Assembly (NCBI GenBank): GCA_022703765.1
Contig: JAKJHQ010000001.1
Location: forward strand, 17,854 to 81,853
Length of the DNA: 64,000 nucleotides
DNA from: Candidatus Wallbacteria bacterium
Lineage (GTDB): Bacteria > Muiribacteriota > UBA9980
Direction of reading: 5' to 3'
The notes beneath the pieces are model-generated. The model was not told the origin of the DNA, did no database searches, and saw nothing but the letters and a program-made list of their open reading frames with translations. The translations under genes were made by a program, and so were the position numbers. Position 1 is the first letter of the stretch. The number at the start of each line of letters is the position of its first letter. Positions 7,942-62,256 of the stretch are shown here, one piece after another.

Positions 7942-7973
7942 ATTATCACCCCTTTTTAAATTATAAAATAAGA

Positions 7974-8606: not shown

Positions 8607-8633
8607 GGATATTTAAATGGAATAATCGGGGTT

Positions 8634-9281
8634 TTATTTTTCCAGCCATTCGGTCAGTATGGATTTGATATTATTTACGGCCCTGCGTTTTTCGGGGCTG
8701 CTTTTGCCTATATACTGCGTATCCAGAAGGAATTGAAAGGTTTTCACGGCCAGTTCGTCGGATATTTGGGTTTGTCTGCCCGAAGAAAATCCGGAGGCGG
8801 TTTCTTCGCCGGCCTCTACGGAGCGTTCCGCGGAGTCGGCCTGCGGAGCCGGGGCCGCATGGGTTTCGGCTGTTTTAAGAAGTTCGGTCACGCCTTCGCG
8901 GTCGCCTTTTTCGATCGGGCTTTCATCCACAATATGAAGCGCTTCGGCGGCGTCGATTTCGTTGAACATGACCGATTTAAAAAGTTTGGACTGTTCGCTG
9001 GAAAATTCGGCCCATTTCCTGTCATGGTAAAGAAATCTTGAAAATACGCCTATTTCGAGCGGCGATATGACGGCCGCGTCGGCGCCCGCTTCTTTGATGA
9101 GAAGCATATATATCTTGCTGTTATCGATATCGGTTATGAATATGCGTTTATTCCAGCGTGCGAATTTATTGTTGAAGAAATCCGCGGCGTCGAATATGTC
9201 TTTCGACCGTTTGCGGAAGTCGGCGTTCAGGCCCTTTTCTGAAGGCGTCTTGAGCGCCACTATTACTTTGAAAATTTTCAT
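8634..9281 (-). CDS. Hypothetical protein.
   Basis: 215-aa ORF with an AAGGCGG RBS and mixed, non-repetitive composition. The overlapping plus-strand ORF (8544..9041) is G/F-rich, consistent with an antisense artefact. Confidence 0.5.
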   Translation of the reverse strand: MKIFKVIVALKTPSEKGLNADFRKRSKDIFDAADFFNNKFARWNKRIFITDIDNSKIYMLLIKEAGADAAVISPLEIGVFSRFLYHDRKWAEFSSEQSKLFKSVMFNEIDAAEALHIVDESPIEKGDREGVTELLKTAETHAAPAPQADSAERSVEAGEETASGFSSGRQTQISDELAVKTFQFLLDTQYIGKSSPEKRRAVNNIKSILTEWLEK

Positions 9282-17834: not shown

Positions 17835-20528
17835 TCAAAGTAAACCTTTAATGCGCTTTATTTCGGTAATTTCCGAAAATGTTATAACCGCGCCTTCGAT
17901 AACGTTTTCCATCGTACGGTAAGGCTGAATGCGCATCTGATACCATTGGCCGTCGGGCGTCTGCACTTCGGACTCTTTCGGTATCAACGTATCCAGAACC
18001 GTCCGGGTATCGTAAACGAGATCGGCGTAACCTTTGATTTTGCAAACTATATCGCTAATGGGCCTTCCTATGTCGGCGGAAATAAGGTTAATGACGCGCC
18101 TGACGGCGGGCGTGAAACGACGCACGCGAAGCTGATGATCGAGAAAAAGCGTGCCTATATTAGTTCCGGCGAGCAGGTTATTCATATCGTTATTCACCCG
18201 GGAAAGATCGGCCACTTTCTGCTGCAGTTCAGTATTTACAGTGGAGAGTTCCTCGTTGACCGATTGAAGCTCCTCTTTTGACGTTTCGAGCTCCTCGTTG
18301 GCCGACTGCAGTTCTTCGTTGACCGATTGAAGCTCTTCGTTGGCGGATTTAAGCTCTTCGTTCGAAGTCTCCATTTCTTCGAGCGTAGAGCGCAAATATT
18401 CTTCCTTGGCCTTCAAACGAAGTTCCAGCTCGTTTATTTTCGCAAGTTCGCCGCCGTCCGGCGGCGAGCCGGCATCTTCTTTTTTTATATAATTTTCGAG
18501 AGCGGTTTCACCGCCGTCTTCTAAAATAATCATAAACAGAGCGGGTGATCCTTCGGCGCAGGGCAGCGGCAGCGGTCTAACTTTTAAATCGACGTTAGTG
18601 AAATTGCCGTTAGTTTTTACTTTAAGCCCCGGATAACTGACCGGGGCGTTATTGGCCGCGGCCTTGTGAAGCGCGCTGGTGAGCTCGTAGCGCAATCCTT
18701 CGCGGGCCATTTTTAATACGTTCACTCCGGCTTCGCCCGGCGACGGTTCAAGATACTTGCCCGTTCGCCCGTGTATATATAAAATATCTCCGCGTTCGTT
18801 AACGATAACGCACGGCGGAGCGTACTGTAAAAGAAGCTCACGCTCGGTCATTTCACGGATTGAAATTTTGGCGGCCGCGACATTTTCGCGGGAACGTTTG
18901 GCCGCGAAATCGCGTTCCGCCATTGGAGTCATAATACTGGCGCGTGCGTGGGCGCCGGAACACGCGGTAATATCTTTTCGCTGATAAAGCTTCCATTTTC
19001 TGTCTATCACCGAAAATAAATCGGCGAAATCTCCTATCGATTCTGAATTTCCCAGAAACAAATAGCCGGAAGCGTTTAAGGCGTAATGAAACATGGGTAT
19101 GATTTTTTTTTGAAGCTCGCCGTCCATATAAATTAAAAGATTGCGGCAGCTTATAATATCTATTTTCGAAAACGGCGGGTCTTTAATAAGGCTCTGCTCC
19201 GAAAATATGAGCATATCGCGTATGATCTTTTTAATGCGGAAAGTCCCGTCTTCGGGATTATGAGTAAAAAAACGCGACAACCTTTCAGGCGAAATATCCG
19301 CCGCGATTGAAGCCGGATATATTCCGGCGCGGGCGGCCTCTATGGCTCGCGCGTCGATATCGGTGGCGAAAATCTGTATCTGGCATGAGCCTTTTAGCCG
19401 TTCGAGATGTTCTTGAAAAATAATAGCTATGGAATAAGCTTCTTCGCCAGTAGAACAGCCGCTCACCCAGACGCGTAAAGCCGTTCCGGAAGGCTTTTTG
19501 CTTAAAACAGATTCGACGATATTTTTATCGAAATTTTCGAAAGCTTCGGCGTCGCGGAAAAAATTAGTTACGCCGATAAGCAGGTCGCGAAAGAGCGCTT
19601 CAACTTCTTCCGGTTTTTTTTGAATGTATTGAACGTAATTTTCGAGCGTTTCTATTTTATTGACCATCATGCGTCTTTCGACGCGGCGTGATATGGTATT
19701 GGATTTATAATGTGAAAAATCATGGCCCGTAAATGAGCGAAGTATAATAAATATTTTTTTAAGAGCGTTTTCCGCTTTAACTTCGGACGCCGCCGAAGGG
19801 ACCAGGCCTTTACCGAAAGCGTTTTTAACGTAAGCGATCAATTGTTCCGGCATCTGCTGGGGAGTTAATATATAATCCACAAGTCCGGTGGCAATGGCGC
19901 TTCTGGGCATTCCGTCGTATTCGGTCGAATCGGGGCTCTGCGCCATGACCATTCCGCCTTCGCCCTTTACCGCGCGGATCCCGTGCATGCCGTCGTTTCC
20001 GGTTCCGGAAAGGACTATGCAAATGGAACGTTCTCGCTGGTCCTGCGCAAGTGAGCGGAAGAAAAAGTCTATAGGCAGCCTCATTCCACGGGGCGAAGAC
20101 GGCTCCATCAAATGAAGCGTACCGTTTAAAAAGGCCATGTCTTTATTAGGCGGAATTATATAGGCGCAGTCGGGCTGGACCTTCATCGCATCCTCGACCT
20201 CAAAAACCTTCATTCGCGTATAGCGTTTAACGAGCTCGGCGAGGATGCTTTTGTGGTCGGGCGCAAGGTGCTGCACGAGTACGAAAGCCATTCCGGTTTC
20301 GACGCCGGGCGGCATGGCTGAAAAAAAAGCCTCGAAAGCGCCGAGCCCTCCGGCCGACGCGCCGATGCCCACTACCGCAAAATTTGAGTTATCGGCGTTT
20401 TTTTTATGATTATCGCCGGTAATAACGGGGCCGCGGCCCGCGACGGATATTGCGGAAATCTTATCATCCGGCGTTATTATCTTTTTCTTCTTTGTAATAG
20501 CACACCTTCTAATCGCTAAATATTTCAA
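17835..20528 (-). CDS. CheB methylesterase / CheR methyltransferase fusion protein with a C-terminal coiled-coil and PAS-like region.
   Basis: CheB core AVVGIGASAGGLGAFEAFFSAMPP ... VLVQHLAPDH ... GTGNDGMHG. CheR region FFRDAEAFENF ... RVWVSGCSTGEEAYSIAII. Heptad repeats EELQSVNEELQSANEEL. The start is uncertain: the ORF opens on TTG and no in-frame ATG occurs before the CheB core. Confidence 0.85.
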   Translation of the reverse strand: MKYLAIRRCAITKKKKIITPDDKISAISVAGRGPVITGDNHKKNADNSNFAVVGIGASAGGLGAFEAFFSAMPPGVETGMAFVLVQHLAPDHKSILAELVKRYTRMKVFEVEDAMKVQPDCAYIIPPNKDMAFLNGTLHLMEPSSPRGMRLPIDFFFRSLAQDQRERSICIVLSGTGNDGMHGIRAVKGEGGMVMAQSPDSTEYDGMPRSAIATGLVDYILTPQQMPEQLIAYVKNAFGKGLVPSAASEVKAENALKKIFIILRSFTGHDFSHYKSNTISRRVERRMMVNKIETLENYVQYIQKKPEEVEALFRDLLIGVTNFFRDAEAFENFDKNIVESVLSKKPSGTALRVWVSGCSTGEEAYSIAIIFQEHLERLKGSCQIQIFATDIDARAIEAARAGIYPASIAADISPERLSRFFTHNPEDGTFRIKKIIRDMLIFSEQSLIKDPPFSKIDIISCRNLLIYMDGELQKKIIPMFHYALNASGYLFLGNSESIGDFADLFSVIDRKWKLYQRKDITACSGAHARASIMTPMAERDFAAKRSRENVAAAKISIREMTERELLLQYAPPCVIVNERGDILYIHGRTGKYLEPSPGEAGVNVLKMAREGLRYELTSALHKAAANNAPVSYPGLKVKTNGNFTNVDLKVRPLPLPCAEGSPALFMIILEDGGETALENYIKKEDAGSPPDGGELAKINELELRLKAKEEYLRSTLEEMETSNEELKSANEELQSVNEELQSANEELETSKEELQSVNEELSTVNTELQQKVADLSRVNNDMNNLLAGTNIGTLFLDHQLRVRRFTPAVRRVINLISADIGRPISDIVCKIKGYADLVYDTRTVLDTLIPKESEVQTPDGQWYQMRIQPYRTMENVIEGAVITFSEITEIKRIKGLL

Positions 20529-23333: not shown

Positions 23334-23448
23334 TTAACGACCTCTAATCATTGATATTTCATTTATAAATTAACCGCAATATTATGTAATCCATCGCTTA
23401 TTCTATCATATAAAAGCTATTTAATAAAGTTTTTTTTGGGTTCCCTTT

Positions 23449-23536
23449 CATTTTGTATGGGAAAGGGCATCAGTGAAGTGCAGAGTTGATAGTGCATAGT
23501 GGATAGTGAAGGCTGGGGCTCGCCCTGCGAGCTCTA
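23449..23536 (+). repeat. Intergenic repeat family, head module (H), a diverged copy.
   Basis: cagtgaagtgcagagttgatagtgcatagtggatagtgaagg, then ctggggctcgccctgcgagctctat. Compare 7974-8080 and 32538-32640. Confidence 0.7.
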
Positions 23537-23589
23537 TTTGATTAACCGAAAGGTAAATATAAAACCCTTAAGGTAACTAACCCGTAAGC

Positions 23590-23820
23590 CATTATTGCAG
23601 CGCAGACGCGAGCGAAGCGCGCGTCTGCAAAAAAAACATAAATAAAAAGCTGAGCATAAAAGAAATTATAGCAACATAAGAAAAGAGCCTAGCAGAATTA
23701 AAGCGCCGATAGAAAAGCTGGCACTTCACAAAAATAAAGCGTCAGGCTAATCAGGGGTTGGAAGGGATTTTAAGGGAAGGCAGGGGCCATTGGCCCCTGG
23801 CCTTCCCTTATCAAAAAAAG
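23590..23820 (+). repeat. Composite structured element, copy 2 (hairpin, purine-rich tract and palindrome in the same order as 8289-8606).
   Basis: ccattattgcagcgcagacgcgagcgaagcgcgcgtctgcaaaa. A purine-rich tract. aaagcgtcaggc...aggggttggaagggattttaagggaaggcaggggccattggcccctggccttcccttatcaaaaaaag. Confidence 0.75.
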
Positions 23821-28966: not shown

Positions 28967-29311
28967 ATGGGATTACGCTCGATCGAAGACATAGAAAACC
29001 AGGTCGAGGACGAAATCCTCAGAAACGCCGAAGAGCGTTACAGGGATGAAAACGACCGCGAATACGTCCTGGTTTTAAAGGCCAAAGACCTTATAATGGC
29101 CGATATGGCCGAAGGGCTTTTAAACGACAACGATATCGAAGTGATCAAAAAATCCGACAGCGCGAAGGGCATCTTCGGAGTGAGCATGTTTCCTCCGGCG
29201 CTTTACGTGCCGGCCGAAGATTTTGAGCGCGCGTTCGATATCCTTTCCGGGTGCGGTTTTTTCGACGAAACGGAAAACGAGATAGAATCCGATGTCGATG
29301 AAAATAAATAA
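28967..29311 (+). CDS. Small acidic protein, possibly DUF2007-like.
   Basis: Starts 2 nt after the ssb stop. YVLVLKAKDLIMADMAEGLLNDNDIEV ... ALYVPAEDFERAFDIL fits a DUF2007-type pattern. The family assignment is uncertain. Confidence 0.4.
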   Translation: MGLRSIEDIENQVEDEILRNAEERYRDENDREYVLVLKAKDLIMADMAEGLLNDNDIEVIKKSDSAKGIFGVSMFPPALYVPAEDFERAFDILSGCGFFDETENEIESDVDENK

Positions 29312-29335
29312 GCGGTTTTTCGTAAAAACTCAAAG

Positions 29336-31429
29336 ATGAATTTTAAAAATATTTCCGGATTAAAGCATCTTATAATCATATTATACATGGCGGGTTTTTT
29401 TATACCCGCCATTTTTAATAACGCGGCGGCGGCGCCGATAAGTGAAAACACCCGCACGCTCGAGGTAAAGCTGCGCTATAAAGCGGTCGATGAAATAAAC
29501 ATATCGTCCGCTTTTTTAGAGGAAGACAGCCGTTCGGAGGCGGGCGGAAGCCTTTTTAAAAACTTTCGCAACAGCCGTGTAATAAACGATTTCACGCTCG
29601 ACGGGGGGCTTCTTGTAACGGCCGGCGATTTCGGCGCAGGCTTAACGCGCATGGCATTCGCGGGCGAAAGCGGCGGCGCGGGAAATTTATTCGAAGAGCG
29701 CAAATACGAAAACGCATTTAAAACATTAAACGGCGGCGGCTGTTTCGGCGCCGAGTTAAGCGCGGCGGCCTTCGACGGCGATAATTTTTATTTCGGCGCC
29801 AGGGGCGGAGATTTAATAGAATTAAACGACAGGTCAATCAGGCGCATTTCAATAATCAGCGCGGCGGGCCGTTTCGGCATCAACAAGCTTAAATCTCGGG
29901 GCGGCGCGCTTTTCATACTGACGGCCGGCGGCGGGCTTTATATTTACGTTAAAAACAGGATTTATAAAATATCAGACCGCTCTCACGGCCTTCCATCGAA
30001 CGACGTAAACGACATAGATATATTCGAAAAAGATAATATAACATATCTGGCGCTCGCCCTTTCCGGCGGGAGCGTTATTTTAAAAGTCAACAGCTTCGAA
30101 GCCAACGATTTAGAGCGGGTTTATTTACAGAAATCGGCTTCTTCGTTCGACGCGGCTTTTTACGCGGACGGCAGCGTTTATTTCGGCGGGGCTTCGGGCC
30201 TCGAACGGGTTGAAATGTGCGCCGTTAATTTTGAAAAAGCCCTCGTTTTAAAAGATATATTCGTGACTTCGATAACCGGCGCGGGCGGCGGAAAAACAGC
30301 TGCGGACGGAAACCCGGCCATAATCTTTTCCACCTACGCGTCGGGCGTATTCAGGCTCGACTGCCGCGGCGGCGCTCCTATAAAATTGATAACGCAATCC
30401 AGGCTCGCTTCGCTCAAGGCAGCCGAAGGCATCAAAAAGGTCGAAGCCGGCGGGGACGGCCTTTATCTTCTTTCAAAAAACGCATTATTCAAATACGGCG
30501 GTTCGCGGCTGCAAATAATCGAGGAAAACAGGCGCGGTTTTTCCGATAAAATAACCGCGCTTTGCGAATATGCCGGCTATTTGTTCTGCGCCACGTTCGA
30601 CGGCGGAGTTTTCGTTTACGACCGCGGGCGCGCGGCGGATTTCGGTTCGCTCTGCGCGCAGAAGCTTTCGGGCGCGCAGACCAACGCCCTGGCGGCATTC
30701 GGAAATTACCTTTTAATAGGCTCTACCAGCGGGCTGGACGTATTCGATTACTCTTCGCGCCGCCTGGTTCCGCTTAAAAATCAGCTGGAAAGCCCGCGCG
30801 TAAATGCCCTGCACGTTTCCTCCGACAGGGCGTTCATAGGCACTTCCGCCGGAATATCGGTTCTGAAGGCCGACATGAGCGTCGAAAATATAAGCCTGGA
30901 CCCGAATATAATAGATAAACGCGTTTACTGCGTTTATTACGACCGGGCGGCGGATATAATTTATTTCGGCACTTACAGGGGTTTCGGCGAAATGAAGTAT
31001 TCATCGCGGCAGCTCAAGACTTATTTTACGATCAATTCCGCGATAGCCGATAACTGGATAACGGCCATAGCGCCTTACGGCGCAGATAATTTACTCGCGG
31101 CCACCTATGATCGGGGCATATCGCTTTTCAACGTCAGGACTAAAAAATTTACGCCGTTCGGCGCGAAAAACACTCTGCCTTCAAAAATGGTAAACGCCAA
31201 CGCGCTTTTTAATCACGGCGATTTCATTTTCGCAGGAACGTATAACGGCGGGCTCGCCTTAATAGACCGAGGCCGCGGCGGCCGCTTTAGGCATTTCAAC
31301 TCCAGAAACGCGATCATGTCCAACATGGTCACCTCATTTGCCGTTTATAAGGACATGATAGCGGCGGGCACTTTTTCGGGCATTTCGTTCATAAGGCAAA
31401 AAGACCTGCAAAGCGCGTTCGAGTTTTAA
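29336..31429 (+). CDS. Secreted beta-propeller-like repeat protein (two-component-regulator-propeller-like repeats).
   Basis: Signal peptide LIIILYMAGFFIPAIFNNAAAA. Recurrent G.GLY ... GL.SN.VN blades, for example GGGLYIYVKNRIYKISDRSHGLPSNDVNDI. Confidence 0.45.
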   Translation: MNFKNISGLKHLIIILYMAGFFIPAIFNNAAAAPISENTRTLEVKLRYKAVDEINISSAFLEEDSRSEAGGSLFKNFRNSRVINDFTLDGGLLVTAGDFGAGLTRMAFAGESGGAGNLFEERKYENAFKTLNGGGCFGAELSAAAFDGDNFYFGARGGDLIELNDRSIRRISIISAAGRFGINKLKSRGGALFILTAGGGLYIYVKNRIYKISDRSHGLPSNDVNDIDIFEKDNITYLALALSGGSVILKVNSFEANDLERVYLQKSASSFDAAFYADGSVYFGGASGLERVEMCAVNFEKALVLKDIFVTSITGAGGGKTAADGNPAIIFSTYASGVFRLDCRGGAPIKLITQSRLASLKAAEGIKKVEAGGDGLYLLSKNALFKYGGSRLQIIEENRRGFSDKITALCEYAGYLFCATFDGGVFVYDRGRAADFGSLCAQKLSGAQTNALAAFGNYLLIGSTSGLDVFDYSSRRLVPLKNQLESPRVNALHVSSDRAFIGTSAGISVLKADMSVENISLDPNIIDKRVYCVYYDRAADIIYFGTYRGFGEMKYSSRQLKTYFTINSAIADNWITAIAPYGADNLLAATYDRGISLFNVRTKKFTPFGAKNTLPSKMVNANALFNHGDFIFAGTYNGGLALIDRGRGGRFRHFNSRNAIMSNMVTSFAVYKDMIAAGTFSGISFIRQKDLQSAFEF

Positions 31430-31483
31430 AGGCATTGCGGCTGATTTCCTGAAGGCTATTTTTAGTGTATAGGCAGGCCGGTT

Positions 31484-32536
31484 ATGAAAAAATATACCGA
31501 CGCAATATTATTTTTTTTATATATACGCCGGTTTGCGGTTCTATTAGCCGCAGCGGCTCTTTTAACGGCGTTCGATTCGCCGTTTTTCATCTTTTCCGCC
31601 CGGGCGGAAGGTCTTAAAAACAGCTTTTACCGCGGCGAGCTTTCGAGCGGCGAGATACAAATCTATAACCGCATGGCCGATAAGTTCGACAGTATGCGCG
31701 GCGGCAAATATTCAAAAAAAGAGATATTCGCGGCGGCGGTAAATATTAATACCGGCAAGGTCGTTTTCGCGAGCGACCGCGATTTTTTTTACGGGCGCAA
31801 GATCTCGCCGGGCTCGATTATTAAGATATTCGATTACGCGCTTATATTAAAGCATATCAAAAACGCTTCAAGCGTAAAGTTTTATTGCAAAGACGAAAGC
31901 GTCTCCGGCGGGCGGCGCTACAACTGCTCTCAAAAAGGCGGGCACGGAGAAGTAGATCTGGAGTCGGCCTTTTGCAATTCATGCAATTTATATTTCAAAA
32001 AATTCATGGGTCTTATACCTCGGCGCGAGTTCGCCGGCGCTTTAAAAAGGTGCGGTTTTATAGATGAAGCCGAAGAAAAAGCCCTTTTAAAAGCTTCGAG
32101 CGAGCGTTACCTGCAGGCCGCGATAGGCGACGGCCCCGTAAAAGTTACGCCGCAAAAATTAATCGAACTCGTAACGTTTCTCGCGGCTCCCGATTCGCCG
32201 GCCTCGGCCGATGCGGGCGGATACCGTCTGGTTTTCGACGGCGGCTGCGCCGAAAAAATCAACTTCGCGATGCGCGGCGTCGTAACCCGCGGCACTGCAT
32301 TTAACGCCATGGCCGGAACGGATTGCGCGGCCAAAACCGGTTCAGCGGGGATTTCAGCACGCATAGAAAAGGGGAAAAAGATTATAATAACCAGCGGCGT
32401 TTTTTTATGCTATACTCCGTATATAAATCCAGAATACGCGATCATGACTTTCTGCGAACCGGGGACGGGCGGAATAGAGGCCGCCGGGCTCGCGCGCGAA
32501 TTAATTTCCGCCATAGGCGAACCGCTTATCAAATAG
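31484..32536 (+). CDS. Serine beta-lactamase / penicillin-binding-protein (transpeptidase-fold) family protein.
   Basis: SxxK (SPGSIIK), SxN (CNSCN) and KTG (AAKTGSAG) in the canonical order and spacing. N-terminal hydrophobic segment. Confidence 0.6.
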   Translation: MKKYTDAILFFLYIRRFAVLLAAAALLTAFDSPFFIFSARAEGLKNSFYRGELSSGEIQIYNRMADKFDSMRGGKYSKKEIFAAAVNINTGKVVFASDRDFFYGRKISPGSIIKIFDYALILKHIKNASSVKFYCKDESVSGGRRYNCSQKGGHGEVDLESAFCNSCNLYFKKFMGLIPRREFAGALKRCGFIDEAEEKALLKASSERYLQAAIGDGPVKVTPQKLIELVTFLAAPDSPASADAGGYRLVFDGGCAEKINFAMRGVVTRGTAFNAMAGTDCAAKTGSAGISARIEKGKKIIITSGVFLCYTPYINPEYAIMTFCEPGTGGIEAAGLARELISAIGEPLIK

Positions 32537-32537
32537 G

Positions 32538-32735
32538 CTCTTATTCATTTCATGTGGGCAAGTTTATTAGTGAACAGTGTAGAGTGGATAGTGAATAGTT
32601 AAGGCCGGGGCTCGCCCTGCGAGCTTTATATATAAAATATTAAAAACGCCTTATAGAAATTTCCAAAAGTCCTTTAGTTCTCAACTCTCCACTCTAAACT
32701 CTTAATTTAATTTAAATATTTTACCCATACGAGAT
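32538..32735 (+). repeat. Intergenic repeat element with head (H) and tail (T) modules.
   Basis: ttcatttcatgtgggcaagtttattagtgaacagtgtagagtggatagtgaatagttaaggccggggctcgccctgcgagctttatatataaaatat ... ttagttctcaactctccactctaaactcttaatttaatttaaatattttacccatac. Its reverse complement recurs at 37325-37523. Confidence 0.85.
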
Positions 32736-32890
32736 GAAAAAGAACCATCAAATAGTATATTCAGTTTTAAATATATTCTATGTCTTTTTCTTTAAAAACG
32801 CTCAAAAGCGGGTTTGCATTTTGCGGCAGGATATTGTATAATATATCCATTAAATTTACGGCAGCATATATATCAAACGGGAGGTATGAA

Positions 32891-34330
32891 ATGAAAAGTG
32901 TTATCGAAGACGTGTTCAAGCGTCTTAAAAACGGCGGCGCCAGCTATTCGGACATCAGAATTATAAACATGACCGAAGAAGGGGTCGCTACAAATAACGT
33001 TAAAGTCGATAATTATAATATTTCCACCGACGAAGGCTTCGGAATACGGGTATTTTATAACGGCGCCATGGGCTTCGCCTCGTCTAATATAGTAAACGAG
33101 AACGAAATCAGGCGCGTGGCGGATTTCGCTTTTTCCATAGCTAAAGCTTCGGCCCTGACGGTAGATAAGCCGGCTAAACTCGCCCCGTGCGACCCCGTAA
33201 AAGACAAATACGCCACTCATATAGAAATCGATCCGTTTAAAGTGTCGCTCGATGAAAAGCTCGGCCTTTTATTCGACTGCGAAGACCTTATGAGAACGGT
33301 AAAAGGCGTTTCGCTCACCAAGGGATTTTTAAAATTCTGGAAAACCGATAAAAAATTCTATTCGTCCGACGGCGCAGATATAGAGCAAACCATATACGAA
33401 TCGGGCGGCGGCATCGAATGCTATTCGATCGCCAACGGCGACTTTCAGAAACGCTCTTTCCCCAATTCGTTCCGCGGCAACTACGGCACGGCCGGATACG
33501 AATATATCAAAAAGCTCGGCCTGAAAGAAAATTCCGAAAGAATAGCCCGCGAATGCGCCGCCCTCATAGACGCTCCCCAGATGCCTTCGGGCCTGGCCAC
33601 CCTTATAATCGGCGGCTCCCAGCTCGGCCTTCAGGTGCACGAATCATGCGGCCACGCGGTAGAACTCGACCGCGTGCTGGGCCTTGAAGCGAGCTACGCC
33701 GGCACTTCTTTTTTAACGCTGGACAAGCGCGGCACTTTCAAGTACGGCTCTAAAATAGTCAATCTGGTGGCCGACGGCACGATCCCGGGCGGCCTGGGCT
33801 CGTTCAAATACGACGACGAAGGCGTTCCGGCGCAGAGGATCGAAATAGTCAAAGACGGAATTTTCATGAATTATCTTTCTTCGCGCGACACGGCGGCCTG
33901 CCTGAACGAAGCATCCAACGGCACGGCGCGCGCCGACGGCTGGGCGAGGATCCCCATAGTCAGAATGACCAACATAAATCTGGAACCCGGAGAACCCTCG
34001 CTGGAAGAGTTAATCGCCGACACCAAAGACGGCTATTTCATAGACACCAACACTTCATGGTCTATAGACGATAAGCGCGTAAACTTTCAGTTCGGCTGCG
34101 AAATCGCGTGGGAAATAAAAGACGGAAAACTCGGAAAAATCTTTAAAAACCCCACATATTACGGCATCACTCCCGAATTCTGGGGCAATTGCGACGCCAT
34201 ATGCAATAAAGACCATCAGGTAATATGGGGAACTCCGAACTGCGGCAAGGGCGAGCCCGGGCAGGTAATGCACGTCGCGCACCGCACTTCTCCGGCCAGA
34301 TTCAGAAATGTAAGGGTAGGTGTTAAATAA
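32891..34330 (+). CDS. tldD: TldD-family metalloprotease.
   Basis: HExxxH motif HESCGHAVELDRV and the GTSFL region. Start set at ATG 32891, which has a GGGAGG RBS; the longer ORF from 32780 runs into the repeat. Confidence 0.8.
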   Translation: MKSVIEDVFKRLKNGGASYSDIRIINMTEEGVATNNVKVDNYNISTDEGFGIRVFYNGAMGFASSNIVNENEIRRVADFAFSIAKASALTVDKPAKLAPCDPVKDKYATHIEIDPFKVSLDEKLGLLFDCEDLMRTVKGVSLTKGFLKFWKTDKKFYSSDGADIEQTIYESGGGIECYSIANGDFQKRSFPNSFRGNYGTAGYEYIKKLGLKENSERIARECAALIDAPQMPSGLATLIIGGSQLGLQVHESCGHAVELDRVLGLEASYAGTSFLTLDKRGTFKYGSKIVNLVADGTIPGGLGSFKYDDEGVPAQRIEIVKDGIFMNYLSSRDTAACLNEASNGTARADGWARIPIVRMTNINLEPGEPSLEELIADTKDGYFIDTNTSWSIDDKRVNFQFGCEIAWEIKDGKLGKIFKNPTYYGITPEFWGNCDAICNKDHQVIWGTPNCGKGEPGQVMHVAHRTSPARFRNVRVGVK

Positions 34331-34332
34331 TT

Positions 34333-35682
34333 ATGATTTTCGGTGAAAAAGAATTCAATAAAATTTACGATTATATAAAAAGCAATTCAAAATTCGACAA
34401 ATTCGACGTGCTCATAAACGCGTTCGACAGCAAGCTCACGCGCTTCGCCAACTCCATAATACATCAGAACGTAGCGGAAAAGAACTTCTCGGTCCTTCTG
34501 CGCGGCGTCAAAAATAACCGCGTCGGAGTGGCTTCGGTCAATTCGAACGACAGCGCCAAACTCGGAGCGCTGATTAAAAACGTAGAAACCATAATTTCAT
34601 TGAAAAAAGAGGACGAAGACGCCTGCATAGTTGATAAATGGGAAGAAATGCCGTCCTACACGCAATTCTGGAACGAAAACACGGCCAAACACACTCCGGA
34701 GCAGATGGCCAGATCCGTTGACGTCATCCTTAAAAAAGCGAAAAGCAATAAAATAGACGCGTTCGGCGCGTTCGAAGTGAATTTATCGGAGCTGTTCTTC
34801 GCGAACTCCTTCGGGCTTAAAAGGTACAATCCCGTCACCATGGCTTCGGTCAACGTGACCGCCATGGGCGATCAATACACATACGCCGGGCTTTCGCTCG
34901 GGCGCAACTGCGACGTTTCAAAGCTCGATTTCGACGCTATCGGCGACGAAGCCTGCGGCATATGCCTTAGGGCCAAAAATCCCGTGGACGTAGAGCCGGG
35001 CCGCTACGACGTAATTTTGTCGCATCAGGCCGGCGAGCACCTTTTCGGCATGCTCAGCTATCTGGGGTTTTCGGCGCGCAGTTACCAGGAAGGCCGAAGC
35101 TTCCTCTGCGGAAAACTTGGAACTAAAATATGCGGCGAAAATATAACTCTGTGGGACGACGGCCTGGACGTAAACGGTCAGCCGATGCCCTTCGATTTCG
35201 AGGGCGTTAAAAAAGAAAAAGTGACGCTCATTGAAAACGGAGTGGCAAAAAATATAGTCTACGACACCAAAACCGCGAAAAAAGACAATAAAAAATCCAC
35301 CGGGCATGCGCTTCCGGCCAATTCTTCCTACGGCCCGCTGCCATGGAACCTTTTCGTCAAACCCGGCGACAAAACCAAAGAAGAAATGATCAAGTCCACT
35401 AAAAAAGGGCTTCTGATAACTTCGTTTCATTATGTAAATATAGTGAATCCGCGTGAAACCACGATAACCGGCATGACAAGAAACGGCACGTTCATGATAG
35501 AAGACGGAAAAGTGACCCGCCCCATCAAGAACCTGCGCTTTACCGAAAGCATCTGCACGGCGCTTTCTAACGTAGAGGCGCTCGGAAACGACCCGAAACT
35601 CATGGGCGATTCGTTCGGCGGCACCGTGCTTCCGACGATGAAAATAAAGGGCTTCAACTTCACTTCAAAAACGGAGTTTTAA
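34333..35682 (+). CDS. pmbA: PmbA/TldE-family protein, the partner of TldD.
   Basis: C-terminal TGMTRNGTFMIEDGKV is typical of the PmbA/TldD family. It starts 2 nt after the tldD stop. Confidence 0.8.
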   Translation: MIFGEKEFNKIYDYIKSNSKFDKFDVLINAFDSKLTRFANSIIHQNVAEKNFSVLLRGVKNNRVGVASVNSNDSAKLGALIKNVETIISLKKEDEDACIVDKWEEMPSYTQFWNENTAKHTPEQMARSVDVILKKAKSNKIDAFGAFEVNLSELFFANSFGLKRYNPVTMASVNVTAMGDQYTYAGLSLGRNCDVSKLDFDAIGDEACGICLRAKNPVDVEPGRYDVILSHQAGEHLFGMLSYLGFSARSYQEGRSFLCGKLGTKICGENITLWDDGLDVNGQPMPFDFEGVKKEKVTLIENGVAKNIVYDTKTAKKDNKKSTGHALPANSSYGPLPWNLFVKPGDKTKEEMIKSTKKGLLITSFHYVNIVNPRETTITGMTRNGTFMIEDGKVTRPIKNLRFTESICTALSNVEALGNDPKLMGDSFGGTVLPTMKIKGFNFTSKTEF

Positions 35683-35685
35683 AGC

Positions 35686-37239
35686 TTATAATATCCTGTA
35701 AATTTCCACAGGAGCTTCTTTGCCTTTAAGCAAGGTTTCACCCGCTTTTTCGAATTCAATATTCGCAGGAGCGGGTGAAATCTTTTTATAAACGTCTGAA
35801 GTTATGAGGATATCGGCCTTGTAATCTTTAGTTTTCGATTCTATGCGGGAAGCTATATTGACGGTATCGCCGATGACGGTATATTCAAGGCGCGACGAAG
35901 TGCCTATATTTCCGGCCACCAGCGTTCCGGTATGGATTCCGATCCCGAATTTAATTTCTCCGGCGGGCTTGACGCCGTTTTTATTGAACTCTTCGAGCGC
36001 GCCGCGCATTTTAACGGCCGACAGCACCGCGTCGCGCACGTGATCGGCGGAACCGAGAGAAGGCACATAAATCGCCATCACGGCGTCGCCTATAAATTTA
36101 TTTATGACGCCGTGATTTTCGATAATCGGCGCGGTTATGTAAGAAAAATAAGAATTGAGCATTTCGACGAGCTGCCTTGCGCTGATTTTTTCGGATATGC
36201 TCGTGAAATTCCTTATATCGCAAAACAAAACAGTGGCTTCTATCTCTTCGCCGCCGGGGTCCATTTTGCCGCTTTTCAAAAGTTCGCGCGCGACTTCTAT
36301 GGATACGTACTTGCCGAAAGTTTCGCGCAAAAGTTCGCGTTCGCGAAGCTGGGAGGTCATCACGTTAAAGTGAGACTTTATCCTGGCGATTTCATCGGTG
36401 AAATAAATCCTTGATTTAACGTTAAAATCTCCGGCGGCAAGCCTTTTCATTTTTTCCGAAAGGTCGTCGAGAGGTTTTTGAAGATTTTTAACGATAAATG
36501 CCACGCCGAGCGTCATCGGCGTGAAAGCTCCGACTAAAACCAGGTTCCAGAGAAAATCGGACTGGTCGCCGGAAACGGGAAACGAATTAACCGTAAAAAG
36601 ATAAATCAGCGTAAGCGGAATAACAGCGGTGGATATTACGAGCATTATTATTTTAGCGGCTATGGATATCTGATAGCCTTCTTTCATTCGGTACAGCTCT
36701 TCTTCTTCGTATAAAAAACCGATATAATCTCCCGCGCCGCCGAATAGAAGGGTGTCTAAAAATACGGCCGCGAAGCATAGCTGCACAATAACCGAAAGCG
36801 CCATTGCCGGAAGGTTATATTTAAAAAAATACGCCCAGACGATAAAATTTCTATAAATTACGATATGGGCGCAGACTTTAGCCACAAAGACCGATATGAA
36901 AATGCCGAATATGTCGCGGTATATAAAAGCGATTTTCCGGCGGGCGGCCGAGCGGTTTTCGGGCGTGGGATTTTTTGAAAAGCGCCATAGCGGGATAAAC
37001 CATAAGCCAAACATCACCAGCATAAAAGAAAAGCCGAAAGCTATCCAGTTGAATTTTACGCCGGAGCCGTAATCGATGACGGAGCGGATCTTCTCTTTAT
37101 CCCCGAGGCCCGTGACCGCCATATAAAAAAATATAGTGAAGATGGAATCTACGCCGAGAGTGTAAAACGGCGTTATCATTACCTGATAAAGGTTTCCAAG
37201 CGGAAGTTTTTTAGAATCCGGCTTTAATTCATCGTTCAT
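35686..37239 (-). CDS. Membrane class III adenylate/guanylate cyclase with a HAMP-like linker.
   Basis: N-terminal multi-TM region. CHD motifs ATVLFCDIRNFTSISE ... FIGDAVMAIY ... GIGIHTGTLVAGNIGT ... YTVIGDTVNIASRIE. Confidence 0.85.
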   Translation of the reverse strand: MNDELKPDSKKLPLGNLYQVMITPFYTLGVDSIFTIFFYMAVTGLGDKEKIRSVIDYGSGVKFNWIAFGFSFMLVMFGLWFIPLWRFSKNPTPENRSAARRKIAFIYRDIFGIFISVFVAKVCAHIVIYRNFIVWAYFFKYNLPAMALSVIVQLCFAAVFLDTLLFGGAGDYIGFLYEEEELYRMKEGYQISIAAKIIMLVISTAVIPLTLIYLFTVNSFPVSGDQSDFLWNLVLVGAFTPMTLGVAFIVKNLQKPLDDLSEKMKRLAAGDFNVKSRIYFTDEIARIKSHFNVMTSQLRERELLRETFGKYVSIEVARELLKSGKMDPGGEEIEATVLFCDIRNFTSISEKISARQLVEMLNSYFSYITAPIIENHGVINKFIGDAVMAIYVPSLGSADHVRDAVLSAVKMRGALEEFNKNGVKPAGEIKFGIGIHTGTLVAGNIGTSSRLEYTVIGDTVNIASRIESKTKDYKADILITSDVYKKISPAPANIEFEKAGETLLKGKEAPVEIYRIL

Positions 37240-37324
37240 TTTTTACCCTGCGCATAATATAAATTTCATGGTTTTATAATTTTACATCATCCGGCCGGAT
37301 AAATCAATAAATTTGGTTATTTTT

Positions 37325-37523
37325 CATATAGTATGGGTAAAATATTTAAATTAAGTTAAGAGTTCAGAGTGGAGAGTTGAGAACTAAAGGACTTTTGAAA
37401 ATTTCTATAAGGCGTTTTTAATATTTTATATATAAAGCTCGCAGGGCGAGCCCCAGCCTCAACTATTCACTATCCACTCTACACTATCCACTGATAAACT
37501 TACCCACATGAAATGAATAAGAG
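37325..37523 (-). repeat. Intergenic repeat element (T+H modules), an inverted copy of 32538-32735.
   Basis: The reverse complement is about 90% identical to 32538-32735 (agttcagagtggagagttgagaactaaagg ... gctcgcagggcgagccccagcctcaactattcactatccactctacactatccactgataaacttacccacatgaaatgaataagag). Confidence 0.85.
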
Positions 37524-37651
37524 TCATAAATTTATATATAATACCCTGCAAATCTTGACTTATGCGTCAAAAAATGTTATAAATGACATATGATAATTTT
37601 GCGATCGTTTTTTATCGTTAATTTAACGGCCGCGCTTTTTGAGGTGATATA

Positions 37652-38272
37652 GTGAAGAAAGTCAGCCTGGACAGCCTTGAAGCAGAAATGAAAATAGCAC
37701 AGACGATTACGATTCCGTTTACCGAAGTCACGCTGGTTGAATGCGGGACGATGCTCAACGAGCCGGCCGTTTTGCTGCTTAAAAGCATGGGAATAAACGA
37801 AGTCAGCGTTTACGAAGAAAGCGAGCTCAGGGAAATGGCCCTCGAAGCCGCCGCCGAAGCCGATAAAGGCCAGAAGGTCAGGCAGGTACTCATAGTTGAC
37901 GACGAGCGCGAGATATGCAATTATATCGGCGAAGTGGTCACCAGCCAGGGCTTCAAGCCAAGAGTCGCGCTGAGCGCGGCCGACGCATGGAACCGCCTGG
38001 CGAGCGATCCTTCTATAAACGATGTTTTTCTTGATATAATGATGCCGGAAATGAACGGGATCGAATTTCTCAATAAAGTAAGAAACGAACTCGGAAGAAA
38101 CGTGAACGTAGTGATGGTCACCGCCAAAAAAACCATAGAAGACGTAGTGGTGGCCAAAAAGCTCGGAATCGTAGATTATATAATGAAGCCTTTCACGCCC
38201 GACAGAATAGTAAAAGCTCTGCAGATGATGGCCGAAAAAAAAGGGAAGACGCTTCAGTCGCAGCAGAATTAA
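37652..38272 (+). CDS. Stand-alone response-regulator receiver protein with an N-terminal extension of about 80 aa.
   Basis: REC motifs VLIVDDE, DVFLDIMMPEMNG, VVMVTA and the Lys in IMKPF. GTG start with a GAGGTGA RBS. Confidence 0.75.
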   Translation: MKKVSLDSLEAEMKIAQTITIPFTEVTLVECGTMLNEPAVLLLKSMGINEVSVYEESELREMALEAAAEADKGQKVRQVLIVDDEREICNYIGEVVTSQGFKPRVALSAADAWNRLASDPSINDVFLDIMMPEMNGIEFLNKVRNELGRNVNVVMVTAKKTIEDVVVAKKLGIVDYIMKPFTPDRIVKALQMMAEKKGKTLQSQQN

Positions 38273-39082: not shown

Positions 39083-41476
39083 CTAGCCGTTCATACGCAA
39101 AGAGGCTGTTTTGATTATGCGCGCGGCGGCGAGATGGCCGTTAAATTCGGCTATATAAGCCGCGGTTTTACCGTCGTTATCCTTAGCTTCGGCCGAAGCG
39201 CCGCAATTGATGAGGATTTTTATTATATCTTCGTTTCCGTTGTGGGCGGCCGCTATCAGGGGCGTTTTTCCTCCCGCGTCCGCCGCGTTGCAATCGGCTT
39301 TATTGTTAACGAGCAATTGTACGGCCTCAAAATTATTGGCTGCGGCGCTTTCTATAAGCGGGGTCCTTTCGTCGTTGTCCCTTTCGTTTACGTTTGCGCC
39401 GGAGCTTATAAGGGCTTTCATCGACTGAATGTAGCCTCCGCGCGCCGCTTCCATAAGCGCCGTGCGGCCCTTTACGTCGCGCGCGTTGACGTTCGCGCCG
39501 TGTTTAATGAGATTGAGGGCGATCTCGAAATTGCCGCGAAGGGCCGCTTCCATAAGCGGCGTCCTTTCGTTGTCGTCGGCCGCGTTCACGTCGGCGCCGG
39601 CCTCTATCAGCCTGTTGCAGAAAGAGGTCTTGCCGAGCAGCGCGGCGTCGTGCAGAGCGCTGCGGCCGTTGTCGTCGAGCGCCTTCACGTCGGCGTCGCT
39701 GGCTATAAGCGCTTTTACGATATCCATATTTTCGCCGTAAATCGACGCGGCGGCTTCGTGAAGGGGGGTTTTGCCGTTATCGTCTTTCAGGTTTACGGCC
39801 GCGTTTTTCTTTAAAACGGTCCTTATGAACTCCCAGTTGCCTCGAAGCACGGCGTCGTGCAGAGCGCTTCTTCCTTCGTCGTCGCGGGCGTTTATATCGG
39901 CGCCGTTTTCGACGAGAAGCGAAGTTATCAGAGCGCTGTTGGCAGAAAACGAAGCGGCGGCTTCATGCAGGGCGCTGCGCCCGCTGTCGTCGCGGCTGTT
40001 AATGTTTACGCCCTTTTCGATAAGCACTTTAACGGCCTCGGCGCCGTTTTTGCCCGAAGCGTAGATAAGCGCGGTGCGGCCTTTGTTGTCTTTCGCGTTT
40101 ACGTCGAGGCCTTTATCGATAAGCACTTTTAAAGTTTCTATATTGTTGAGGTTCTCCTGCGAAAATAAAACGGTTTTGCCGTCGTTATCGCGGTTATTCA
40201 CGTTTATTCCGCTTTCTACGAGCATTTTAAATATGGCGTCGTAGCCTTTTTCGCGGGCCAGGGCGAGCGCGGTTTTGCCGTCGTTGTTTTTAACGTCAAC
40301 GTCGGCGCCGGCGGTTATGAGGCCTCTTACCACGTCGTAATGGCCGTTTTCTACGCCCATTATGAGCGCGCTCCTGCCGAGGCGGTCTTTGGCGTCTATA
40401 TTGGCGCAGCGCGTCGCGAGAAGGTTAACCACGTTGGCATGGCCGGCTTCGGCGGCTTTCATGAGCGCCACGGAACGGCAGTTATCGCAAATGTTGGCGT
40501 CGGCGCCTTTTTCGACGAATAACCTCACTATGTCTATATGGCCCTTTTCGGCGGCGCTCATAAGGGCCGTGGCGCAATAATTGGTTTGCGCGTTTATGTC
40601 GGCGCCACGGTTGATAAGCAGTTCGGCGATTTCGGCATGCCCCTTTTCGGCGGCGTACATCAGCGCCGTCGTGCAGCATGTCGTCTTGGCGTTTATGTCG
40701 GCGCCGCTGTGAACGAGGAGCCGCGTTATTTCTTTATTTCCGTGATCGGCCGCGATCATGAGGGCGGTGATCATGGAAGACGAGTATTCGTTGACGTTCG
40801 CGCCGTTTTCCAGAAGCAGCTTTACGTTTTCGCAGTCGTTGCAATCTACGGCCTCCATCAGGGCCGTTCTTCCGTTTTCGTCCCTGAGGTTGACGTCGGC
40901 GTTAAGGTTGATAAGCAGTTTAGCCGTTTCCGTGCGGCCGCATTCGCAGGCGCGCATAAGCGGAGTGCGGCCCCTGGAATCCCTGGCGTTGACGTTGACT
41001 CCGTGATGGACAAGATACCTCACTATGGCGATCTGGCCGCACTCGGCCGTTTCGTTGATGGCCGTTTCCACCCATTTTCTCGCGGGATCGAATTCGTGTC
41101 CGTTTTTTATGAAAAGATCGGCCACGTTGTCGTAGCCGCGCCAGATGGCGAACATCAGAGAGTCCCAACCCTCGCGGTCTTTCATTGTAGAGTCCGCTCC
41201 GCTGGCTAAAAGCATTTCGCATATATCGTAATAACCGCGCCAGGCCGCGAACATAAGCGGGGTCCACCCGTCTTCCGTCGCCGCGTTAACGTTAGCCTCG
41301 TTATCTACGAGCAATTTTACGGTATCGAGATAACCCTTTTTAACGGCTTTATGCAGCGCCGTTTCGCCGTCGATTCCGCAGTAGTCGATATCGGCCTTTT
41401 TTAAAATTAAAACCCTTAATAATTCATTGTTTCCGCGTCTCGCCGCGTCGATTAAATTTTCATTTATCTTTTCCAT
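39083..41476 (-). CDS. Ankyrin-repeat protein with about 24 tandem ANK repeats.
   Basis: Repeated G.T(A/P)L(H/M).AA..G(H/Y)..(I/V)V..L(L/I)..GA(D/N)VNA units throughout. Start set at ATG 41476, which has an AGGAGG RBS; the ORF extends to 41563 without one. Confidence 0.85.
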   Translation of the reverse strand: MEKINENLIDAARRGNNELLRVLILKKADIDYCGIDGETALHKAVKKGYLDTVKLLVDNEANVNAATEDGWTPLMFAAWRGYYDICEMLLASGADSTMKDREGWDSLMFAIWRGYDNVADLFIKNGHEFDPARKWVETAINETAECGQIAIVRYLVHHGVNVNARDSRGRTPLMRACECGRTETAKLLINLNADVNLRDENGRTALMEAVDCNDCENVKLLLENGANVNEYSSSMITALMIAADHGNKEITRLLVHSGADINAKTTCCTTALMYAAEKGHAEIAELLINRGADINAQTNYCATALMSAAEKGHIDIVRLFVEKGADANICDNCRSVALMKAAEAGHANVVNLLATRCANIDAKDRLGRSALIMGVENGHYDVVRGLITAGADVDVKNNDGKTALALAREKGYDAIFKMLVESGINVNNRDNDGKTVLFSQENLNNIETLKVLIDKGLDVNAKDNKGRTALIYASGKNGAEAVKVLIEKGVNINSRDDSGRSALHEAAASFSANSALITSLLVENGADINARDDEGRSALHDAVLRGNWEFIRTVLKKNAAVNLKDDNGKTPLHEAAASIYGENMDIVKALIASDADVKALDDNGRSALHDAALLGKTSFCNRLIEAGADVNAADDNERTPLMEAALRGNFEIALNLIKHGANVNARDVKGRTALMEAARGGYIQSMKALISSGANVNERDNDERTPLIESAAANNFEAVQLLVNNKADCNAADAGGKTPLIAAAHNGNEDIIKILINCGASAEAKDNDGKTAAYIAEFNGHLAAARIIKTASLRMNG

Positions 41477-41970
41477 CTCGAGCCTCCTTTCGATTATAAT
41501 TTTCCGAACTGTTTTTAATAATATAATAAAGCCGGAATGCGCGCCGAAAAAACGCGCAATCAATAATTACGCCCGCGCAAATAAATTATGAAAAAGGAAT
41601 ATTGAGATTAGGCGATTCTTTAGGGGATAGACAATATATAAGCCGGCCGGGGCGGCACGCAATCAGACGATCTATAAAACCGAAGAGAAGCGCAATATTA
41701 CATTTTTTGAATATAACGCGCGGCCCGTTTATTAATTTTATGCCTGAAACGCTCATATATTTACCCCCTTTCCCGAAAAAGGAAAAGAAAGGGATTGTTA
41801 AAGAAAAAATCAATTCCCTATATTTATTGTATCAATAATTCCGGCATTTGTCAAAACAAAATCGATATTTTTTATTTTATTTTTTTTACTTACCTTTTTC
41901 AATGATTTTATGGTATAATGTCTTTAATCAATATTTAATTAAATTTCTTTATATAAGCAAAAGGTAATTT

Positions 41971-43308
41971 ATGAAAAAAAGATTCATGCTATATCTTTTC
42001 ATAACGATAGCTTTGACCTCCTCTATAATAACCGTCTTTATTGGCGCTTATTCAAAATCCGTCATATCCGAAAATCTTGAAAATATCAAAAACGACACTG
42101 CTCTGAGGCTGGAAAATCAATTTATCATATACGACAATTTTTTACTGATGATAGAAAGCGAGCTGAAACAAAAGGCTAAAAAAGCGCTTTTAAATTTGTC
42201 GTCCGGTTTTTCCACTTACGAATCCACCCAAAAACCTTCCGCTGAAGATTTAAAAATTCTCGCTGCCGCAAACGGAGTAGATGAAATATATTTCATTAAC
42301 AAGAGCGGCCTTGTCTACAATACATCCTTTAAAACCGACCTCAATTTAAATTTAATGGCCATTACCGATTTCGCGCCGTTTTTGACAAGCGTATTCCATA
42401 AAAACGAAGTCGTTTTTCACCGGCTTTCAAATTCGACGCTTACGGGGGCGATCAATCTTTATGGTTATTATTACCCGAAAGACCGCGAATACGCCATTGA
42501 AGTATCATTAAACGTAAACGATTATCTTAACAAAATTTCTCCTAATTTCTGGCAGAAGACCATTAAAAATATATTTCACAGCCAGTTGAAGTATGTTTCA
42601 TACTTAAAGCAAATCGATATTTACGCCATGAACGATAAAAAAATCTGGTCTTTCATTAACGAAGGCAAGGCTGTAACGCTTAATCAGGAAATGCTCGAAA
42701 GAATTTTTAAAGAAAAAGAAGTCAAGCTCGCTCACGAAAATTTTTTGACTGTCTATAAAGCGATTTCATTCGAAAACAAAGATAATTCATGGTCGCCGTC
42801 GCAGGTAATACTGGAAATGAACTTCGACTACGGGGCCATAGATAAGTTCGAAACGCAGGTAATTTTCTATTCGTTCATAGTCTGCATAGCGATAATACTT
42901 CTCTCTTTCCTGATATCGTCTAAAATACTAAACAATTATATAACAAAAAGGATCATAAATATCAACGATGCTCTAAAAGAAGTCGCCGGCGGTAATTATT
43001 CCATAGTTATTAAAGACGAAGGCGACGATGAAATAACCGAAATCACATCCAATGTCAACGAAATGAGCGCAACCATATTCAAGCATGTAAGCTCGCTCGA
43101 AGAGCTCATGCCCATTTGCGCTTCGTGCAAAAAGATACGCGACGACAAAGGCTACTGGGAACAGGTTGAAAGTTATTTCACCCGGCGTTCCGGAATCAAA
43201 TTTTCTCACGGAATGTGCCCGGATTGCACTAAAAAATACTATCCTGAATATTACAACAAAAAAATGGCCGCCGCCCAAAAAGATGAGAGAGGCGAGCCCC
43301 AGCATTAA
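41971..43308 (+). CDS. Membrane sensor protein with a periplasmic domain, a HAMP-like linker and a C-terminal Cys4 (CxxC-x29-CxxC) module.
   Basis: Two TM segments (LFITIALTSSIITVFIGAY; IVCIAIILLSFLISS). A HAMP-like linker (DALKEVAGGNYSIVIKDEGDDEITEITSNVNEMSATI). C-terminus PICASCKKIRDDKGYW ... FSHGMCPDC. The last ~6 codons and the stop lie inside a repeat fragment. Confidence 0.7.
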   Translation: MKKRFMLYLFITIALTSSIITVFIGAYSKSVISENLENIKNDTALRLENQFIIYDNFLLMIESELKQKAKKALLNLSSGFSTYESTQKPSAEDLKILAAANGVDEIYFINKSGLVYNTSFKTDLNLNLMAITDFAPFLTSVFHKNEVVFHRLSNSTLTGAINLYGYYYPKDREYAIEVSLNVNDYLNKISPNFWQKTIKNIFHSQLKYVSYLKQIDIYAMNDKKIWSFINEGKAVTLNQEMLERIFKEKEVKLAHENFLTVYKAISFENKDNSWSPSQVILEMNFDYGAIDKFETQVIFYSFIVCIAIILLSFLISSKILNNYITKRIININDALKEVAGGNYSIVIKDEGDDEITEITSNVNEMSATIFKHVSSLEELMPICASCKKIRDDKGYWEQVESYFTRRSGIKFSHGMCPDCTKKYYPEYYNKKMAAAQKDERGEPQH

Positions 43309-43355
43309 CCATTCACTATCCACTCTACACTATACACTGATACACATCCCACACG
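43291..43355 (-). repeat. Partial copy of the repeat head module, in inverted orientation.
   Basis: ggcgagccccagcattaaccattcactatccactctacactatacactgatacacatcccacacgaaa, compared with 37440-37520. Confidence 0.7.
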
Positions 43356-43441
43356 AAAAGAAAAAAAGCCTGTTTTTAAATCCCGCTTAAAAAAAAACAA
43401 AAATATCTTTTAAAAAAAATAAAATTATGATATAATTTTAA

Positions 43442-62194: not shown

Positions 62195-62256
62195 CATAAA
62201 ATCTCTCCCTTTCATAATTCGGTATTTTTAGTTTATTTTTATTTTTGGTTCTTTCT

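Follow-up and report, generated by a model that had tools for sequence, protein, structure and literature searches.

Why are the genes for TldD, PmbA and a HAMP-domain cyclase bracketed by two near-identical sequences in opposite orientation? The question arises in a 64,000-nt stretch of the Candidatus Wallbacteria contig JAKJHQ010000001.1 (hereafter the window; all positions count from its first nucleotide), where an initial annotation had described inverted copies about 90% identical over roughly 190 nt, and had offered as explanations non-autonomous miniature inverted-repeat transposable elements (MITEs) or repetitive extragenic palindrome (REP)-like elements, a composite structure, or recombination hotspots. 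Our analysis leaves little doubt that the two repeats are separate insertions of one 211-bp non-coding MITE, dependent on a transposase provided in trans that most likely belongs to the ISL3 family, and the identification of the element as a MITE is itself made with high confidence. The bracketing of tldD, pmbA and the cyclase gene came about by chance, through two insertions into a genome rich in repeats.

Structure of the repeated element and its target-site duplications

A repeat search of the window returned an inverted repeat with arms at 32538-32747 and 37314-37523, which are 94% complementary over 210 nt and separated by 4566 nt; the similarity is thus slightly stronger than first noted. 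BLASTN of the element against the window recovered the second copy at E = 1e-91. The two copies comprise the following features:

32536-32746, plus strand: MITE copy 1, complete, 211 bp, with limits set from its terminal inverted repeats (TIRs) and the flanking 8-bp duplication
37315-37525, minus strand: MITE copy 2, complete, 211 bp, 93.8% identical to copy 1
32536-32558, plus strand: left TIR of copy 1, GGCTCTTATTCATTTCATGTGGG, matching the reverse complement of the right end at 20 of 26 terminal bases (18 of 26 in copy 2)
32724-32746, plus strand: right TIR of copy 1, CCCATACGAGATGAAAAAGAACC
32569-32603, plus strand: subterminal heptads AGTGAAC AGTGTAG AGTGGAT AGTGAAT AGTTAAG, read from the sequence
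32671-32705: inverted, diverged counterpart of the heptads, which pairs with 32569-32603 in the predicted fold; the arms match each other in BLASTN
32610-32624, plus strand: central G+C-rich hairpin GCTCGC-CCT-GCGAGC, followed by TTTATATAT
32528-32535: target-site duplication, left of copy 1, ATCAAATA
32747-32754: target-site duplication, right of copy 1, ATCAAATA
37307-37314: target-site duplication of copy 2, ATAAATTT on the plus strand
37526-37533: second repeat of the copy 2 duplication, ATAAATTT

The TIRs are imperfect (GGCTCTTATTCATTTCATGTGGG / GGTTCTTTTTCAT.TCGTATGGG). Read base by base, the ends are GGCTCTTATTCATTTCATGTGGGCAA and the inverse of GGTTCTTTTTCATCTCGTATGGGTAA, forming imperfect inverted repeats of roughly 26 bp, and these end sequences are conserved across 23 copies. 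The heptads follow the consensus AGTGNAN, and their inverted, subterminal arrangement suggests that they may be transposase-binding sites. The central hairpin is also found, with small variants, in copies that were identified by their TIRs alone. The element has no coding capacity, its longest stop-free stretch being 36 aa, and its G+C content is 35%, compared with 46% for the window.

Target-site duplications, which had been proposed as a check on the element ends, are present as perfect 8-bp repeats at each copy, and the two differ in sequence (ATCAAATA vs ATAAATTT). We extended this comparison to 29 full copies, which came from the window, from metagenome contigs and from three genome bins; a few of these copies represent the same locus in different assemblies. 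Perfect 8-bp direct repeats flanked 15 of the 29 copies and repeats with one mismatch another 7, compared with 0 and 3, respectively, of 464 shifted-register controls. The target sites are 90% A+T.

The insertion sites in related genomes

The bracketed segment of about 4.6 kb does contain tldD, pmbA and the HAMP cyclase gene, as the Pfam assignments indicate. The genes of the locus are:

31484-32536: penicillin-binding protein (PBP)-transpeptidase, with its TAG stop at the left edge of copy 1
32891-34330: TldD, between the arms (Pfam)
34333-35682: PmbA, between the arms (Pfam)
35686-37239, minus strand, opposite to tldD-pmbA: HAMP/guanylate-cyclase-domain protein, between the arms (Pfam)
37652-38272, plus strand: response regulator, beyond copy 2

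Copy 2 therefore occupies the spacer between two divergent genes, those of the cyclase (start 37239, minus strand) and of the response regulator. The absence of a transposase in or adjoining the segment also stood up in the Pfam search and in precomputed Pfam assignments on identical contigs, the other genes of the window having been scanned only in part.

To see how the locus looks elsewhere, relatives within Candidatus Wallbacteria were compared. In the same species, both elements are present, and oriented as in the window, on contigs from five samples (L082-L086, L107, L108); copy 1 is 100% identical in L082-L084, L086 and L107. In the close relatives L103-L105, the DNA adjoining both sites is 86-96% identical and the genes keep the same order and orientation; at both sites, these contigs have one copy of each 8-mer and uninterrupted flanks, that is, precise empty sites, at which the BLAST segments abut with an overlap of 6-8 nt. 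The sequence expected of an element-free allele at the locus is GAACCGCTTATCAAATAGTATATTC. Empty site 1 in L103-L105 reads GGCGAACCGCGAGTTAAATAGTATATTCAG (...GTTAAATAGTATATTC...) and includes the same TAG stop, and empty site 2 in L105 reads GGATAAATCAATAATTTTATATATAAC. In the window, this stop codon is made of the last two bases (TA) of the left duplication of copy 1 and the first G of the MITE, while at the empty site it is made of TA and a G of the flank. The insertion of copy 1 left the PBP stop codon intact.

More distant Wallbacteria (L069, L087, L088 and L089/L091), with coding DNA 72-82% identical to the window, have neither site occupied and show the gene order PBP, tldD, pmbA, cyclase (opposite strand), response regulator, AMMECR1. 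In one of them, UBA6123 (L089/L091), both sites are empty, yet the family is present elsewhere in the bin. Because both close and distant relatives combine empty sites with the same gene order, the comparison of these sequences indicates that both insertions are younger than the divergence from the L104/L105 lineage, and that the locus had its present arrangement before they took place.

These observations bear directly on the idea that a composite, MITE-bounded mobile unit brought tldD, pmbA and the cyclase gene to their present position. Such a unit would agree with the inverted orientation of the copies around 4.6 kb, with their A ends outward. However, the two copies have separate duplications, and the sequences that flank the pair on the outside do not match (ATCAAATA on the left, ATAAATTT on the right). 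In addition, at least six relatives that lack both elements have these three genes in the same place, with unchanged neighbours on either side, a comparison that the initial annotation had recommended, and Pfam revealed no transposase nearby. Given the separate duplications and the empty-site relatives, a composite transposon can be excluded for practical purposes, and the composite structure considered at first is not borne out.

The arrangement could also be imagined as an invertible cassette, in which the 4.6-kb segment would turn over through RecA recombination between the copies or by a site-specific switch. Inverted repeats of 211 bp that contain a perfect run of 33 nt are physically enough for rare homologous recombination. 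Nevertheless, five same-species assemblies that span the junctions and come from different samples (L082, L083/L107, L084, L085/L108, L086) show these only in the parental form, the segment has the same orientation in all the relatives that lack the elements, and no recombinase gene was found. As these are consensus assemblies, a minor subpopulation could go unseen in them. Furthermore, inversion would change little, because promoter-like sites of tldD and of the cyclase gene lie inside the segment. These are σ70-like sites, recognised by consensus match only, at 32813-32842 for tldD (TGTATAAT in relatives) and at 37307-37279 for the cyclase gene, each on the gene side of the insertion. We consider the inversion of this segment, which the initial annotation had viewed as allowed by the repeats, to be highly improbable.

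A recombination hotspot was likewise not supported. The sole switch in identity that we observed, from about 94% to about 100% in L103, is inside tldD near 34000, away from the elements. This contig (JAHZTK010013363.1) was compared with window positions 29000-37077. Before about 34000, where it resembles L104, its identity to the window is 81-95% (88-95% within tldD and just upstream); from there to the contig end at 37077, the identity is about 96-100%. L103 may be a strain recombinant or a chimeric assembly.

Two further sequences at these sites deserve mention. In a contig from another sample (L081:1-50), the left end of copy 1 (TTCATGTGGGTAAGTTTATTAGTGAATAGTT) is joined directly to the sequence from window position 32806 onward, representing either a deletion of most of copy 1 and 59 nt of its flank or an assembly artefact. 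The MITE-free spacer between the cyclase and response-regulator genes of L069 (L069:12570-12640) contains five or six tandem copies of ATAATTTCAC(A), which may be regulator-binding sites.

Copy number and dispersal of the family

A 19-nt core pattern was searched in 185,579 species representatives, and the element was found only in three uncultured bins: ADurb.Bin243 (40 blocks), UBP16_UBA6123 (4) and JPNA_metabat.86 (9). Another 15 matches to the core pattern outside Wallbacteria (Streptomyces, Bradyrhizobium and others) were rejected as chance G+C-rich matches without the element. In the blocks examined, ADurb.Bin243 has at least 45 copies (16 full, 15 partial, and 14 interrupted at the end of a block or contig), UBA6123 has 4 full copies, and JPNA has 1 full and 8 partial copies. 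When metagenomes were scanned with both TIR ends alone, nine loci were obtained from digester and activated-sludge samples, all of them MITEs with duplications. No match to the element was obtained by BLASTN in collections of plasmids and phages.

The median pairwise identity of 23 full copies is 89%. The window copies, 93.8% identical to each other, are 94.8-96.2% identical to UBA6123 copies (L001, L066), and the longest perfect run common to the window pair is the stretch of 33 nt mentioned above. Since copies elsewhere resemble them as much as they resemble each other, the window pair is not special. This similarity, together with the separate duplications and the empty sites in relatives, argues for two independent insertions. 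The 64-kb window contains six family copies. The initial annotation had reasoned that the flanking arrangement would be unremarkable if the element were a ubiquitous intergenic sequence of REP type, present hundreds of times; six copies in 64 kb and at least 45 in one fragmented bin largely correspond to that situation as regards abundance, and the flanking of tldD, pmbA and the cyclase gene is therefore unremarkable.

Every one of the 23 full copies examined lies between genes, in many cases only tens of bases from a gene end. A different explanation would be that the sequence is an intergenic repeat or small RNA maintained by the host (a REP-like or bacterial interspersed mosaic element (BIME)-like sequence, a terminator, or an mRNA-stability element), or a MITE co-opted for such a role. 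The predicted fold of the element is one long, stable hairpin (-54.5 and -59.5 kcal/mol, z = -4.0 and -4.8), the central G+C hairpin is followed by TTTATATAT, copy 1 lies in sense directly 3' of the PBP stop, the sequence is unusually uniform between species, and a second repeat family contains the same heptad-hairpin module. Against these points, both strands fold equally well, as expected because the arms are inverted; the orientation of the copies relative to neighbouring genes is unbiased (9, 6, 3 and 2 across the four arrangements); a terminator scan did not list the central hairpin; and the copies decay by deletion. Rfam gave no match in the whole window at the gathering score, and nothing credible at an E-value threshold in 7900-8700 and three loci that contain the larger repeats. 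The duplications and the empty sites prove insertion. We therefore regard a host-maintained element, or a MITE secondarily co-opted as one, as very unlikely, and the REP-like option does not agree with the presence of TIRs and 8-bp duplications, whereas the non-autonomous MITE first listed among the options proved to be right, given the TIRs, the duplications, the many dispersed copies and the precise empty sites.

Probable relationship with ISL3 elements, and comparison with other intergenic repeats

The parent of the MITE is probably, although by no means certainly, an ISL3-family insertion sequence (IS), as suggested by its GGCTCTT / GGTTCTT ends and the 8-bp duplication. These ends were counted as agreeing with the GG(C/G)TCTT start of ISL3 elements, only 7 bases being common. 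Among published members of the family, ISArsp7 has ends GGCTCTTCGCGG and an 8-bp duplication (PMC6305408), an IS of Microcystis aeruginosa and its ISL3-derived MITE have ends GGCTCTTCG and an 8-bp duplication (PMC11448079), and Tn7546 has ends GGGTCTTCGGA and also duplicates 8 bp (PMC9782665); some of the published duplications are in A+T-rich targets (PMC6305408; PMC11448079; PMC9782665). ISL3 elements move via circular copy-out intermediates (PMC7986276). The Wallbacteria element thus shares with ISL3 elements and their MITEs the GG(C/T)TCTT starts, the 8-bp and often A+T-rich duplication, a short non-coding body and many dispersed copies. In contrast, its ends are unrelated to the published ones past the first 7 bases and are followed inward by long, inverted heptad arrays with a hairpin at the centre, its host belongs to an uncultured candidate phylum, and the DNA searched, a small fraction of each genome, yielded no cognate ISL3 transposase.

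According to this model, the element would be cut or copied at its inverted repeats by a trans-acting transposase, most likely an ISL3-family enzyme working by copy-out-paste-in, and would be pasted into A+T-rich intergenic DNA with the duplication of 8 bp of target. Copy 1 landed on the PBP stop codon, upstream of the putative tldD promoter, and copy 2 between the divergent cyclase and response-regulator genes. Both insertions appear to have been neutral for the neighbouring genes.

Several observations weigh against this model or against parts of it. The ISL3 assignment draws only on 7 terminal bases and the duplication length, and other families, for example the IS1595 and IS256 groups, also generate 8-bp duplications. 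A fuzzy TIR search for an autonomous parent, covering a small part of each genome, found only MITEs; the same was true of the nine metagenome loci with the TIR pattern; and tblastn of the ISPpu12 ISL3 transposase (pWW0) against the window and about 100 loci, which are fractions of genomes, gave no match. Moreover, the coding DNA of the species concerned is about 79% identical (78.8% for tldD-pmbA-cyclase in L091), but their copies share an identity of about 95%, a pattern that simple vertical neutral decay does not predict. The similarity between the UBA6123 and window copies may be due to horizontal spread, to the conservation of a master copy, or to an error in binning. Finally, the left module of the MITE is also part of a larger repeat that has neither a TIR pair nor a duplication; because of this reuse, the origin of the MITE may be more complicated than the plain internal deletion of an IS.

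With these points in mind, we considered whether the heptad-plus-hairpin module is more than transposon baggage, and find this unlikely. If the explanation were horizontal movement, the MITE and an unseen transposase would now be spreading among co-resident Wallbacteria in anaerobic digesters; if it were selection, the module would be a protein- or RNA-level element captured by different repeats.

The 211-bp MITE can also be compared with other abundant intergenic elements. Correia elements (Neisseria), RUP and ERIC/IRU are MITEs of about 100-200 bp with TIRs, which form long hairpins when transcribed. The element described here resembles them in being intergenic, in its TIRs and hairpin fold, and in its frequent location right beside gene ends. 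Correia elements duplicate TA and carry defined promoter and IHF sites; the Wallbacteria MITE differs in duplicating 8 bp, and any regulatory activity of it would be hypothetical. REPs are palindromes of 20-40 nt mobilised by RAYT (TnpA-REP), without TIRs or target duplications. The likeness to the REPs and BIMEs of enterobacteria is in the intergenic location, the palindromic structure and the modular mosaic seen in the larger repeats at 7997-8604 and 23477-23818; the difference is that the 211-bp element has TIRs and 8-bp duplications.

The MITE family is well defined and previously undescribed, belongs to an uncultured phylum, and is recently active and probably ISL3-dependent. It is the first mobile-element family described for the candidate phylum Wallbacteria and, with insertions that vary between lineages about 90% identical, it can serve as a marker of recent transposition. 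Knowledge of the element is of use mainly in annotation and assembly: contig breaks in Wallbacteria bins, over-extended or altered gene ends such as the C-terminus of a HAMP gene at 43291-43308, and apparent structures such as the bracketed segment can all be explained by it. What is known of tldD, pmbA and the cyclase gene is unchanged by its identification.

Relics of the MITE and a larger mosaic repeat

The four shorter family members that had been reported in the window do exist, although with slightly different limits, and they do not form one class of fragments: two are deletion relics of full copies, and the other two are the left module of a larger, different repeat.

7961-8086, plus strand: A-type module (TIR-like end, heptads, central hairpin), left part of the mosaic repeat 7997-8604
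23447-23537, plus strand: A-type module, left part of the second mosaic repeat copy, 23477-23818
43291-43375, minus strand: relic, left (A) half of the MITE, cut inside the central hairpin
62246-62322, minus strand: relic, right (B) half of the MITE, its left half and the flank of that half deleted, as judged by sister-genome comparison

At the site orthologous to 62246-62322, JPNA_metabat.86 (L043) has a near-complete copy flanked by TTAAAAAA. The relic at 43291-43375 provides the last codons (GEPQH, 43291-43308) and the stop of the plus-strand HAMP gene 41971-43308. The 445-aa length of this gene product is also found in the L105 lineage.

The mosaic repeat measures 340-790 nt and consists of MITE-like heptads and the core hairpin, a variable middle, a hairpin GCAGACGCG...CGCGTCTGC, a purine-rich stretch, and a nearly invariant 3' module (...AAGCGTCAGGC..GGGGTTGGAAGGGATTTTAAGGGAAGG...CCTTCCCTTATCAAAAAA, also given as AAGGGAAGG..CCTTCCCTTATCAAAAAA). 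No evident TIR pair, target duplication or Rfam match was found for it. At least eight more copies occur in other loci, some with a further MITE-like insert; copies were located at L062:2531-2879, L058:6241-6762, L057:2227-2795, L018:4775-5323, L061:1802-2591, L013:3160-3890 and L007:140-914. A diverged version fills the PBP-tldD spacer of UBA6123 (L089:4900-5900). The 3' module was evaluated as a candidate RNA; its sequence, which hardly varies, forms one long hairpin in which a single pair covaries, too little for an RNA call. A third MITE-like module is nested in the copies at L057:2227-2795, L061:1802-2591, L013:3160-3890 and L018:4775-5323; it has inverted ends GGGCAGGGGCCAGACAA...TTGTCTGGCCCCTGC and exists in a short form of about 60 nt and a long one of about 190 nt.

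Other features of the window

Several public gene calls lengthen TldD to 516 aa, starting from the ATG at 32780. The most likely start is at 32891, behind GGAGG, which gives a protein of 479 aa, as in all orthologues. The TldD of the window is identical to OQA79378.1 of 'bacterium ADurb.Bin243'. A tRNA/tmRNA scan returned none. The minus-strand gene at 39083-41563 encodes an 826-aa protein made nearly entirely of ankyrin repeats, which accounts for 99-nt periodic repeats in the DNA, and the minus-strand gene at 17835-20528 encodes a CheB-CheR-PAS fusion protein, with a run of 21-nt repeats at 18247-18393.

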